Shown piece by piece: positions 3,709-10,739 of a stretch of 11,508 nucleotides of DNA. This DNA comes from a virus (lineage: Duplodnaviria; Heunggongvirae; Uroviricota; Caudoviricetes): positions 1 to 11,508 of the IMG/VR virus record IMGVR_UViG_2681813225_000024. One strand, given 5' to 3'. Under the pieces are notes generated by a model. The model did not search any database. It was not told the origin of the DNA and saw only the letters and a program-made list of their open reading frames with translations. Every line of letters begins with the position of its first letter. Position 1 is the stretch's first letter. The position numbers were made by a program, and so were the translations under genes.

Positions 3709-3755
3709 GCGGTACCAGTTTGTACACTTGCTTCCGGCTGGTACCGCTCTTTTTA
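3709..3755 (+). terminator. Terminator-like hairpin in the early-left leader
   Basis: 10-bp stem GCGGTACCAG (3709-3718) / CTGGTACCGC (3738-3747) followed by TCTTTTT. Confidence 0.4.
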
Positions 3756-7338: not shown

Positions 7339-8346
7339 ATGACCACTATTACCAAAGAGCGACTGCTGACAATCAAGCAGTGGCGCGAAACATACGGACC
7401 TGGTAGCAACGTTGTACTGCCAGCAGAAGAAGCGGAAGAACTGGCACGGATTGCACTGGCATCATTGGAAGCAGATCCAGTTAAACGAGTTAACTCAGAT
7501 CAGATGCACCGAGTCTGCTTAGAAGCTAATCGCTATTTAGATAAATATGACGCGATGGCGAAAGAGGTAAATAAGTTGCTTGGACGCATCGCCCCGCCAG
7601 CGCCAGTATTTAACGGCGAATACGGTGACGCATATCAGGGCGCTCGTGAAGACCTGTCCATCTGGAAACGGCGAGCGCTTGAAGCTGATGAGCACGTTCG
7701 GCGACTGGAGCAAATCAATGACCACATGGTGAAAGAGGCGCAGGGAGAATCACGCATGGGCGAGCCTGTAATACGTGAGCCAGCACCGGTAGTGCCTGAA
7801 GAAGCAACTCCGGAAAACGTAGAAATGCTCTCTGGCTATGTTTCAACGTACAAATTAACCGATAGCGAGCGCGATATTGCTGCCGAAATATGGAACGCCT
7901 GCCGCGCCGCCATGCTTCAGGGTAGCCAACCTGTAAGCCAAACTTACAAGTTTCCAGTTAATACACCTTGCCAGGATGCGCCAGCCCATATCTGGCTGCA
8001 AACAGCTGGAGTATGGCCAGAAGATGGCGAGTTAAGCGAATTAACGTGGTGCAGCCACAATCAGCACCATGATGACACGCTATATGTTCGAGCTGACTTG
8101 GTAAATGGCAACTCTCCGGGAACTCCGGATAGTTGGATAAGCTGTAGTGATCAAATGCCTGAAAAGGGCCAGAACGTGCTTATTTCGGTGAATTTCGATA
8201 GCTCTCTGGTTGAACCGCTAATATGCTCCGCACGCTATACCGGAAGAACCTTTCGGCGCGGAGATGCAACGATTAAGCCGGGTAATGGTATTGAGCAAGC
8301 AACTCACTGGATGCCGCTACCGGAACCGCCGCAGGAGGTGAAGTGA
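7339..8346 (+). CDS. DUF551 domain-containing phage protein (335 aa)
   Basis: ORF track; C-terminal HWMPLPEPP is characteristic of DUF551 proteins in enterobacterial prophages; AAGGTGA RBS. Confidence 0.6.
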   Translation: MTTITKERLLTIKQWRETYGPGSNVVLPAEEAEELARIALASLEADPVKRVNSDQMHRVCLEANRYLDKYDAMAKEVNKLLGRIAPPAPVFNGEYGDAYQGAREDLSIWKRRALEADEHVRRLEQINDHMVKEAQGESRMGEPVIREPAPVVPEEATPENVEMLSGYVSTYKLTDSERDIAAEIWNACRAAMLQGSQPVSQTYKFPVNTPCQDAPAHIWLQTAGVWPEDGELSELTWCSHNQHHDDTLYVRADLVNGNSPGTPDSWISCSDQMPEKGQNVLISVNFDSSLVEPLICSARYTGRTFRRGDATIKPGNGIEQATHWMPLPEPPQEVK

Positions 8347-8918: not shown

Positions 8919-8954
8919 TTTTCCCGGGTGCAGCCGGTTTTGATGGAGAAAATT

Positions 8955-9236
8955 ATGAACACCTTGTTTTTACTGATGGCTGAATTCAATACCCCTAACA
9001 TTGAACTCTCAGCAGTTAGCCAAAAGTACTTTGGCATGAGTCCAGCCACGGCAGAAGCAAAAGCAAACGCTTGTAAGTTGCCCGTTCCAACATATCGCAT
9101 CGGCACATCACAAAAAGCAAAACGTTGCATCAATATTCAGGATCTTGCGGAATACATAGACAAAAGACGAGAAGAAGGACGTATCGAGTGGGAACAGGTC
9201 AGAACAAGCAAACAGAAGGGCAAAGAACATCACTAA
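8955..9236 (+). CDS. PrtN/AlpA-like small DNA-binding regulator, possibly excisionase-like (93 aa from ATG 8955)
   Basis: ORF track frame 8928..9236; ATG at 8955 with GGAG 7 nt upstream. MNTLFLLMAEF...PVPTYRIGTSQKAKRCINIQDLAEYIDKRREEG resembles pyocin-activator PrtN family proteins. Last gene before the bidirectional terminator. Confidence 0.55.
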   Translation: MNTLFLLMAEFNTPNIELSAVSQKYFGMSPATAEAKANACKLPVPTYRIGTSQKAKRCINIQDLAEYIDKRREEGRIEWEQVRTSKQKGKEHH

Positions 9237-9240
9237 AGAA

Positions 9241-9264
9241 AAAACCCGCCTAAAGGCGGGTTTT
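9241..9264. terminator. Bidirectional rho-independent terminator
   Basis: AAAACCCGCC-TAAA-GGCGGGTTTT; GC stem flanked by A-run and T-run, so it works on both strands. Ends the plus-strand early operon and the convergent minus-strand small ORF. Confidence 0.8.
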
Positions 9265-9283
9265 CAAAAAGCACCAGCTATGA

Positions 9284-9457
9284 TCATGCTGCTTTGCGAC
9301 GACGAAGCTTACCCTGCTGCTCTTTACCAGAGACAGTAGCGTGAGTGAACGCATTAGGAGCAGCCTTCATCAGAACTTCAACAGCAGCACCCATACCTGC
9401 GAATGCTTTCATTGTGTCGAACTTAACCTGTGGCTTGGTTGCTTTTTGATCTTTCAT
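9284..9457 (-). CDS. Small hypothetical protein, 57 aa (MKDQKATKPQVKFDTMKAFAGMGAAVEVLMKAAPNAFTHATVSGKEQQGKLRRRKAA)
   Basis: Not in the ORF track (under 60 aa); found by manual translation. ATG at 9457..9455 with GGGAG 6 nt upstream; stop TGA at 9286..9284 just before the bidirectional terminator. Lys-rich N-terminus, hydrophobic core, basic C-terminal tail. Confidence 0.5.
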   Translation of the reverse strand: MKDQKATKPQVKFDTMKAFAGMGAAVEVLMKAAPNAFTHATVSGKEQQGKLRRRKAA

Positions 9458-9653
9458 AGAAAACTCCCGAGACAGTAAAGGCGTCTCTAACCCTTTCTTT
9501 AAAGCTAGCTTGTTTCGCTAACTTATGCCAATCGATCATGTCGATTGGTGACATCGTTTCTTAGTAGTTTAAGCACAAAACGACTGCCATAGATGTACCT
9601 TTAAGGTAATCTGGACGGGTATCCTACAATTTGTAGACCCTTCTCGTCTATAC

Positions 9654-10190
9654 CTACTGAGCAAATTTAAGAAAGATATCCTGCAGCTCATCAATGACTG
9701 CCGACATCACATAACCGCACTGTTCCATGTGGAAACCAAAAGACTCGTAATACTGCACCAGTTCTGGTACTGGCTCTACAATGTGGACAACTTTACATTC
9801 AACAGCTTTACAAAATATAAAAGCACTCATAAGAGTGAGTAAAACCATGCGCCCTTTCAATGGGTGAGATTCATCTTCTCTAGAAAACCTTTCGATCATA
9901 TGGATACGAAAGATGTTTTCTTCAACCCCATAAACACAAATTGCTGCTCCTGATGGTATTCCCTGAACCCGACCTTGCTGAACAAGTTTTATACAGAACT
10001 CATACTTTTCTCTGGAGTTGCCATAGGTACTTAACGCATAGTCCCATTCAAGCTCACCATAGCCACCACACAGAATCTTGTAATCATCATCACTGAGCGG
10101 ACCAACAGCAAGAGGTAAGCCGACATGATCAATAATCAACTGGATATTGTTACGTACTGATTGACCTATCTCGTCCAGGGTAAGCATCAT
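9654..10190 (-). CDS. Hypothetical protein (178 aa) in AT-rich cargo; weak resemblance to a GNAT-like acyltransferase fold
   Basis: ORF track; tandem ATGs at 10190 and 10187 with GAGG upstream. Loose fit to a GNAT C-terminal pattern (IHMIERF...LKGRMVLLTLMSAFIFCKA...YYESFGF) but no clear Q/R-x-x-G-x-G/A acetyl-CoA motif. Visibly more AT-rich than the phage early genes. Confidence 0.5.
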   Translation of the reverse strand: MMLTLDEIGQSVRNNIQLIIDHVGLPLAVGPLSDDDYKILCGGYGELEWDYALSTYGNSREKYEFCIKLVQQGRVQGIPSGAAICVYGVEENIFRIHMIERFSREDESHPLKGRMVLLTLMSAFIFCKAVECKVVHIVEPVPELVQYYESFGFHMEQCGYVMSAVIDELQDIFLKFAQ

Positions 10191-10219: not shown

Positions 10220-10225
10220 ATTATA
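10220..10225 (-). promoter_or_regulatory. Candidate -10 hexamer (TATAAT on minus strand) for the 178-aa gene
   Basis: Plus ATTATA at 10220-10225 is TATAAT on the minus strand, about 29 nt upstream of the ATG; no convincing -35. Confidence 0.3.
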
Positions 10226-10739
10226 TCTCATTCTTAAGCCGCGTATGGATTACACCTTGAAATGAAAACGCCGGGTTCCCAATAGGCTCCCACAGAGTGT
10301 ATAACTACTTGTTTTTCAAAAACGGTACATCCTATCGAGCATTGGTGCAACGCTAAACCGACCACTCCAGTGAACGTCAGTTTTTTCAGGCATTGCGCTG
10401 GTTTGGTTGATTTTTTGCATTTCAGAATTACCGTGCATTTTCAAATGTAGAGATTATTTTATCAATATATCATGGGGTTATGTTATTCAGCTTCACTGTT
10501 CAGGAGGCTCAATAGCGGGGTACTATACCATAACAACAGGAAGCGCCTGTCTCATTGCAAAAGAAAATTGAGATCCTCTCAAGGCATGAAGCTCTCACGA
10601 AGTGATGGAAATAATCTTATTAGCCGTTAACTTTGTTAAGGCCAATGATAAACAATCCAGGTTCGACGATAAATAAAAAATCACACATTAAACTCTGGTG
10701 ATATATCTCCCTGCTAATAGCATTGATAGAGAAAAAAGA

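Follow-up and report, generated by a model that had tools for sequence, protein, structure and literature searches.

The DNA considered here is a window of 11,508 nucleotides (nt) from a virus of the Caudoviricetes (IMG/VR record IMGVR_UViG_2681813225_000024), and the question that it raises is what two adjacent small genes, one for an acidic acetyltransferase-like protein and one for a basic protein of 57 amino acids (aa), do together at the edge of a prophage. A first-pass annotation of its minus strand had proposed a 178-aa protein of loosely GNAT-like fold at 9654–10190, perhaps paired with a 57-aa open reading frame (ORF) 196 nt downstream and perhaps analogous to GNAT toxins that acetylate aminoacyl-tRNA. 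We find that the GNAT gene and the 57-aa gene in all likelihood form an obligate functional pair, and that this pair is probably a co-transcribed, self-contained cargo cassette ('moron') that moves among mobile elements, temperate phages included, where it takes up accessory and defence slots. Based on the observed fold, obligate pairing, charge complementarity, cassette architecture, mobility and locations, we describe the putative catalysis, physical binding, effector identity and toxicity or defence phenotype of the pair, as far as these can be read from sequences and structure models.

An ORF of 178 aa runs from 10190 to 9654 as annotated. Its protein matches PHROG 4350 (E = 4e-103), its close homologs fall into 51 clusters, and the ratio of nonsynonymous to synonymous substitution rates (dN/dS) is 0.04–0.07; 9654–10187 is therefore a real gene. 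The ATG at 10190 is in frame and one codon upstream of a second ATG at 10187. RefSeq and the family alignment place the start at this second ATG, the spacing to a GAGAGG Shine-Dalgarno sequence agrees, and the likely product is thus one of 177 aa. An AlphaFold2 (AF2) model built with 41 homologs (predicted local distance difference test score (pLDDT) 93.4, predicted TM-score (pTM) 0.90) has the element order α0, β1, α1, α2, β2, β3, β4, α3, β5, α4, β6 and C-terminal helix, and in the model this satisfies the mixed α/β GNAT topology β1-α1-α2-β2-β3-β4-α3-β5-α4-β6. The profile of a 66-member family matched four chains of the PDB, all weakly and all GNATs, the best being nourseothricin acetyltransferase (E = 0.016, aligned from β3 to α4). 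Neither the single protein nor a profile of the close family gave useful matches in searches of Pfam, NCBIfam, PADLOC and PDB sequences, and none of the 66 family members matched a Pfam acetyltransferase model significantly, one member reaching Acetyltransf_1 at E = 0.006. The family is small: a search of 1.84 billion proteins gave 99 representatives at E ≤ 0.001. Because the modelled topology is confident and the weak profile matches are to GNATs only, we regard the protein, as modelled, as a true but divergent GNAT fold outside Pfam. Its nearest structures are NatD/Naa40, GCN5/PCAF, SpeG and RimI/RimJ, at identities of 8–16% and TM-scores of ~0.5. The fold suggested by the first-pass annotation was thus borne out, and the check proposed with it, by profile hidden Markov model (HMM) and structure prediction, succeeded in part: the GNAT fold was recovered by AF2, no curated GNAT model was significant, and the acetyl-CoA loop turned out to be a non-canonical HPLxG.

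The pattern of conserved residues suggests that an active site with an unusual cofactor loop may have been preserved. W49 is invariant, and Y148, part of a YYxxFGF motif in helix 4, is conserved at ≥90% across 66 distant members. In the close family, strand 4 carries an invariant H97 and E100, and helix 3 is preceded by an invariant H109-P-L-x-G113; distant members often share these residues. The canonical pyrophosphate motif A, Q/RxxGxG/A, is replaced by the invariant H-P-L-x-G, in which the last Gly alone is kept and whose loop is ~3 residues longer than in nourseothricin acetyltransferase. Catalytic roles can be assigned tentatively to Y148 and to the acidic strand-4 residue by analogy, for example with Y140 of TacT (PMC4942678). 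We consider it moderately likely that the protein is an active acyltransferase.

The pairing that the first-pass annotation had raised as a possibility proved to be without exception. All 106 GNAT-homolog loci that were fetched carry a small ORF 100–280 nt downstream on the same strand, and the paired loci come from Escherichia, Salmonella, Enterobacter, Hafnia, Photorhabdus, Xenorhabdus, Edwardsiella, Shewanella, Pseudescherichia and Franconibacter. Divergent copies are paired as well, namely those of phage Eeyore (42% identity, with the small ORF unannotated), Edwardsiella (46%) and Shewanella frigidimarina (43%). A distant GNAT branch in Vibrio navarrensis, Shewanella marisflavi and Aeromonas veronii is followed at 25–65 nt by an ORF of 53–57 aa with an isoelectric point (pI) of 10.1–10.7. 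By hhalign, the basic ORFs of this Vibrio/Aeromonas branch show no homology to the small protein of the enterobacteria, and because of this we term them analogous, rather than homologous, to the enterobacterial partner. The two proteins are of opposite charge: across 36 distinct pairs the GNAT protein has a pI of 4.3–5.3 and a net charge of −5 to −18, and its partner a pI of 9.4–10.8.

The partner encoded in the window has a pI of 10.5 and evolves under purifying selection (dN/dS = 0.07–0.25). AF2 models it at a pLDDT of 61 with one central helix (residues 15–32), perhaps a second, and disordered basic ends. It had no matches in Pfam, NCBIfam or PADLOC; DARPin matches from a PDB profile search were discarded as spurious. 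Its maximum 19-residue hydropathy of 1.0 is below membrane-spanning strength. The C-terminus reads ...GKLRRRKAA in the window and follows a conserved pattern of G-K/R, then a basic cluster, then K-A-A; this ending is similar to ClpX recognition tails (ssrA ...LAA, MuA ...RRKKAI), a likeness that we take as a lead only. The codon adaptation index (CAI) of the partner gene is 0.56, versus 0.29 for the GNAT gene and 0.21–0.43 for other genes of the window (0.43 for the yfdQ-like gene, 0.21–0.32 for most others); the weights follow the Sharp-Li E. coli table, absolute values are approximate, and it is the contrast with neighbouring genes that we rely on. None of 2000 random 57-codon windows reached the CAI of the partner, and the contrast was repeated in ten other loci. 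Synonymous divergence of the small ORF between loci is 2–8 times below that of the GNAT gene, probably because of this high-expression codon bias, which in turn suggests that the partner may be made in excess.

The elements of the cassette follow one another in the order −10-like element, GNAT gene, structured spacer, small ORF and terminator (Table 1). Nearly all enterobacterial copies, irrespective of context, have a TAnAAT hexamer 36–44 nt upstream of the GNAT start codon; no recognisable −35 element accompanies the hexamer of the window. The spacer folds more stably than shuffled sequence (z = −2.87). An alignment of 19 spacers supports two hairpins with compensatory and G·U changes, in which 94.9% of cells are paired, compared with 20–41% in slid controls, and in which 24 double-change cells were observed against 9.7 ± 2.8 in shuffles (0 of 500 shuffles reached 24). 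The many G·U pairs point to a sense-strand RNA of the spacer and give indirect support to a transcript spanning both genes. A conserved UAGAC (9646–9650), located at the GNAT stop codon or directly behind it, complements GUCU(C) at 9469–9473, which adjoins the Shine-Dalgarno sequence of the small ORF (9464–9468), and a local GAGAC/GUCUC hairpin competes with this pairing for the same bases. Both pairings are invariant and hence neither prove nor disprove a switch. The spacer region contained no tRNA genes and no Rfam families, sub-threshold Rfam matches being to the terminator hairpin only. A 43-aa ORF overlapping the spacer (9423–9554) was rejected as a gene, as it is conserved only in near-identical copies.

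The terminator scan found no terminator-like site between the two ORFs, in line with the first-pass annotation, and one strong site after the small ORF, which is common, tail-to-tail, to the convergent PrtN-like gene (8928–9236, plus strand). The description of this site as a shared bidirectional terminator held for one direction: it is strong on the minus strand (9265–9240), and the same hairpin read on the plus strand has a tail of 4 T only. An equivalent terminator with a different stem sequence lies 3' of the small ORF in nearly all loci. Given the strict synteny, the structured spacer read on the sense strand and the single terminator after the small ORF, the GNAT gene and the small ORF are probably co-transcribed, as had been proposed.

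The pair can be placed within its prophage. The window is the right end of an mEp460-type lambdoid prophage inserted in the 5' end of E. coli dusA, and it matches exactly E. coli 2014C-3011 and several further genomes. Free phage mEp460 has the order integrase, attP with a surrogate dusA 5' end, gp23 (178/177 aa), gp24 (57 aa) and PrtN-like gene. When the window is aligned with mEp460, identity begins at position 10342 and runs leftward, which places the attR core at ~10334–10342; this agrees with the dusA-targeting integrases described previously (PMC4482086). With attR at this place, the GNAT/57-aa pair is the outermost gene pair of the prophage, just inside attR and transcribed toward the early-left operon. 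The dusA promoter and 5' fragment are directed into the prophage cargo, and the terminator scan gave no terminator-like site between the dusA fragment and the GNAT gene. With the promoter pointing into the cassette in this way, read-through from the displaced dusA promoter is possible in lysogens. The surrogate dusA 5' end of the free phage occupies the equivalent upstream place, and a dusA-type promoter may serve the cargo in the prophage and in the free phage alike.

The cassette occurs at no fewer than six (≥6) kinds of insertion site. E. coli, Salmonella and Shewanella have it at the attP-proximal end of the prophage; in Enterobacter, Hafnia and phage Eeyore its place is between the antiterminator gene Q and the lysis genes. 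In Hafnia prophages the pair directly follows a RelA_SpoT gene that corresponds to the PADLOC candidate PDC-S33 (E = 2e-119); this gene (loci L112 and L113, 2051–3109) encodes 319–352 aa and lies between antiterminator Q and a holin gene. In a P2-like prophage of Edwardsiella the pair is found between gpA and the portal gene, and the P2 gpA–gpQ region is a defence hotspot described by Rousset et al. (PMC9122126). Upstream of the pair, this Edwardsiella hotspot (locus L110, 3982–5448) also encodes proteins of 243 and 235 aa with hydrophobic N-terminal segments, one of which has a faint KwaA match (E = 0.008). The Photorhabdus pair is inside a tail-gene cluster, head genes being absent within the 16.5-kb locus read, and that of Pseudescherichia is at the edge of a phage-like element. 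Members of the distant branch are found on the V. navarrensis chromosome (locus L119, 5001–5778), where the GNAT gene and a 54-aa basic ORF stand beside a ParE/Phd pair in an array that, by its many short genes, resembles integron cassettes; in S. marisflavi, adjoining an integrase; and in A. veronii (loci L117 and L118, 5001–5769), where the GNAT gene and an uncalled 57-aa basic ORF immediately follow the zot gene of a CTX-like filamentous prophage. In CTXphi, ctxAB lies at this position.

In sister dusA phages the same slot carries other cargo. SKA5 (locus L018) and Lys8385Vzw (locus L019, 1973–2961), and also locus L115, have a Panacea-domain (PF13274) gene with an overlapping 139-aa gene, an arrangement of the PanA toxin-antitoxin type. 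In SKA5 and Lys8385Vzw these two genes stand in place of promoter, GNAT gene and spacer; the sequences become homologous again 13 nt ahead of the small ORF's ATG, and the same terminator follows. Among 5426 complete E. coli genomes the GNAT gene is present in 358, the PanA allele in 208 and the small ORF in 562; by these counts the small ORF of E. coli is nearly always preceded by either GNAT or PanA cargo. The cassette thus has the marks of a moron or mobile cargo, with a conserved −10-like hexamer (the promoter being a consensus match) and a terminator, variable presence in collinear phages, and varied sites. It also has the location expected of anti-phage defence genes, in the P2 hotspot of Edwardsiella, beside PDC-S33 in Hafnia and in the PanA slot, which is circumstantial evidence about place and not a phenotype.

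The simplest reading of these observations is an enzyme–peptide pair in which one component controls the other, and we put the chance that one partner neutralises the other at close to even. More specifically, the GNAT protein may be an effector and the small protein its neutraliser or decoy, in a toxin-antitoxin-like or abortive-infection-type system; this is the reading that we favour, though tentatively. The GNAT enzyme would then acylate something cationic and not tRNA, for instance a polyamine or the basic tail or N-terminus of a protein; in support, the GNAT protein is acidic and its nearest structures act on cationic substrates. The small basic protein would fill the acidic substrate groove of the enzyme as neutraliser or decoy substrate, and would be made in excess and lost by proteolysis or titration upon stress or infection. 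Such an arrangement would resemble the C-terminal peptides of TacA and AtaR that block GNAT toxins. The locations of the cassette give circumstantial support to the idea of toxin-antitoxin-like or defence/exclusion cargo.

Several points weigh against an effector with a neutraliser. The small ORF is kept where PanA and the 139-aa gene replace the GNAT gene, so that the partner could act independently of it. A spacer of 196 nt is unusual for toxin-antitoxin operons, and the copies in the tail operon of Photorhabdus are without a terminator of their own. The non-canonical, longer acetyl-CoA loop may fail to bind CoA. As modelled, the partner lacks a DNA-binding fold, unlike typical type II antitoxins. 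Neither protein matches Pfam, NCBIfam or any known or candidate defence model of PADLOC.

Of the alternatives, the one that fares best, improbable though we judge it, is that the pair benefits the phage, with the GNAT protein as a counter-defence or host-takeover acetyltransferase that would modify a host or defence protein and the small protein as its cofactor or regulator. AcrVA5, a small phage-encoded GNAT anti-CRISPR, acetylates a protein lysine in this manner. AcrVA5 differs in its much smaller size and is not known to have an obligate small basic partner. In favour of this reading, the cassette is carried by phages, accessory slots also house counter-defence genes, and the acidity of the GNAT protein is shared by many anti-defence proteins. 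Speaking against such a role, the cassette brings a −10-like element and a terminator of its own and runs convergent to the early-left operon instead of being part of it, and copies reside in the integron-like Vibrio array and in tail-only clusters, where a function at the infection stage makes little sense.

Still less probable, in our view, is a pair with the roles reversed, in which the small basic protein would be the harmful component (for instance a nucleic-acid- or membrane-binding peptide) and the GNAT protein, by acetylation at lysines or at the N-terminus of this peptide, would render it harmless or bring it to maturity, in a type VII-like manner. The gene order would then be neutraliser first, as in most toxin-antitoxin operons, and an acidic enzyme next to a disordered, Lys/Arg-rich neighbour, with a conserved G-K/R and basic cluster near its C-terminus, resembles an enzyme with its substrate. 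The conserved hairpin and long-range pairing at the Shine-Dalgarno sequence of the small ORF suggest tight translational control, and in sister phages the small ORF persists beside a different neutraliser-type gene, PanA. High-expression codon usage would, however, be odd for a toxin, and the hydropathy of the peptide gives no segment of membrane-spanning strength. A GNAT fold that has lost its acetyl-CoA chemistry and serves as a non-catalytic scaffold for binding or as a decoy, in a pair acting by binding alone, would account for a motif A that departs from Q/RxxGxG/A (one Gly kept, an invariant Leu at the usual Gly position, a longer loop), for the failure of curated GNAT HMMs to match and for the strong acidity, but is very unlikely given the near-invariant catalytic-type Tyr, the strand-4 Glu/His and the HPLxG loop retained in distant members, which suggest a preserved active site.

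Coordinates of the cassette and of the adjoining host DNA are compiled in Table 1. RefSeq annotates the prophage part in the order LexA-like repressor, yfdP/Q/R-like early-left genes, 3'-5' exonuclease and PrtN-family gene, continued by two convergent 'hypothetical proteins', partial dusA and then the host genes yjbM (DUF2713), zur and lexA. At 7339–8346 (plus strand) the window has a single continuous 335-aa ORF with DUF551 in its C-terminal part, which RefSeq represents as a partial pseudogene and a shorter DUF551 coding sequence. The ArcA-regulated small RNA sRNA-17 of mEp460-type prophages has been published, with 2014C-3011 among the carriers of a 'degenerative sRNA-17' (PMC7719688). The first 26 nt compared of sRNA-17 match the window exactly at 3722–3747 (minus strand), between the repressor gene and yfdP, and its 3' end is missing from the window, in agreement with that listing (PMC7719688). 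A location of sRNA-17 in the spacer between the GNAT gene and the 57-aa gene was thereby ruled out, as it maps elsewhere and is unrelated to the cassette.

Table 1. Features of the cassette and of the prophage–host junction, in window coordinates.
Feature	Position	Strand or orientation	Evidence or remark
Rho-independent terminator closing the cassette, strong hairpin and T-run	9240..9265	-	terminator scan
57-aa strongly basic partner gene (mEp460 gp24, PHROG 2741)	9284..9457	-	PHROG E = 8e-36
Structured spacer between the genes, 196 nt	9458..9653	-	hairpins ~9528-9549, 9502-9524, 9469-9487
GNAT-fold gene, 177-aa acidic protein (mEp460 gp23, PHROG 4350)	9654..10187	-	RefSeq, family alignment, AF2
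-10-like hexamer (TATAAT), 38 nt upstream of the GNAT ATG	10220..10225	-	consensus match only
attR crossover core	~10334-10342	right side, host chromosome; left side, prophage	mEp460 alignment
Host dusA 5' fragment, displaced	10316..10444	-	RefSeq: partial tRNA-dihydrouridine synthase
dusA promoter region, 5' of the fragment	~10445-10730	-	host DNA

The pair is a GNAT-based two-gene mobile module that is absent from PADLOC models and curated families, and no description of it turned up in the literature under its accession numbers, its PHROG ids or its subject. It could, although we think this doubtful, represent a previously unrecognised toxin-antitoxin-like or defence family, in which an acidic GNAT protein and a small basic protein would be mutually controlled by acetylation and the expression of the partner set by the spacer RNA. 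Such a family would be spread over tailed prophages, P2-like phages, filamentous prophages, tail-gene clusters and integron cassettes of Gammaproteobacteria and would take one of two forms: a minimal peptide neutralising a GNAT effector with a cationic target, or a type VII-like enzyme antitoxin acetylating a small basic toxin. It would then be a GNAT system whose partner, gene order and probably target (cationic, not tRNA) are unlike those of TacT/AtaT. The pair occurs in ~7% of complete E. coli genomes and in numerous prophages of Salmonella and Enterobacter. The attP-proximal end of dusA-integrating phages would, in the case of such a family, provide a clear example of cargo swapping between the GNAT pair and the PanA pair, and in lysogens of these phages the cargo may be expressed from the host's displaced dusA promoter. 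Were the protein merely a phage accessory enzyme, it would still define a GNAT family missing from Pfam.

Among known systems the first comparison is with the GNAT/DUF1778 toxin-antitoxin systems (TacAT, AtaRT, KacAT, ItaRT), to which the first-pass annotation had drawn its analogy. They share with the cassette a GNAT-fold protein of ~175 aa encoded with a small partner gene on mobile DNA and the conserved catalytic-type Tyr, and in TacAT and AtaRT short C-terminal peptides of the antitoxins TacA and AtaR block the GNAT toxin (PDB 7ak9 and 6gtr, both among our structure hits). Were the GNAT protein a canonical toxin of this group (TacT, AtaT, KacT, ItaT), it would block translation by acetylating aminoacyl-tRNA at its amino group, and the 57-aa protein would be the antitoxin. 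The known GNAT toxin clade is, however, defined by its association with a DUF1778 or DUF4065 partner (PMC9177977), and the sole conserved neighbour here, the 57-aa protein, is neither DUF4065 nor DUF1778/ribbon-helix-helix (RHH). The gene order is reversed, the GNAT gene coming first and being followed by a structured spacer of 95–280 nt. TacT requires positive patches for toxicity (PMC4942678), whereas the 36 GNAT variants, judged here by their net charge, have the negative values given above. The proteins show no sequence membership either, with 0 of 66 significant against Pfam acetyltransferase models, and structural similarity to TacT/AtaT is no higher than to histone, polyamine and ribosomal-protein acetyltransferases (GCN5, NatD, SpeG, RimI). 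With no DUF1778/DUF4065 partner, an acidic charge, a reversed order with a long spacer, no match in sequence and no structural leaning towards those toxins, the pair lacks the marks that define the TacT/AtaT family; the proposed analogy is at most partial, and a canonical toxin is very improbable.

The nearest structures, NatD/Naa40, GCN5/PCAF, SpeG and RimI/RimJ, act on cationic substrates; the phage GNAT protein differs from them in its non-canonical loop and in being a cargo gene tied to a dedicated small partner. As an autonomous unit at classic cargo positions the cassette resembles the morons and cargo of known hotspots (P2 gpA–gpQ, the Q-to-lysis 'stx' slot, the ctxAB slot after zot), and it differs from validated cargo in being missing from PADLOC and known here from its genes alone. 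A positional counterpart is PanA-PanT (Panacea/DUF4065), which occupies exactly the same slot, from attP to the small ORF, and is followed by the same small ORF and terminator; its proteins are unrelated to those of the GNAT pair, and it is an alternative cargo, not a homolog.

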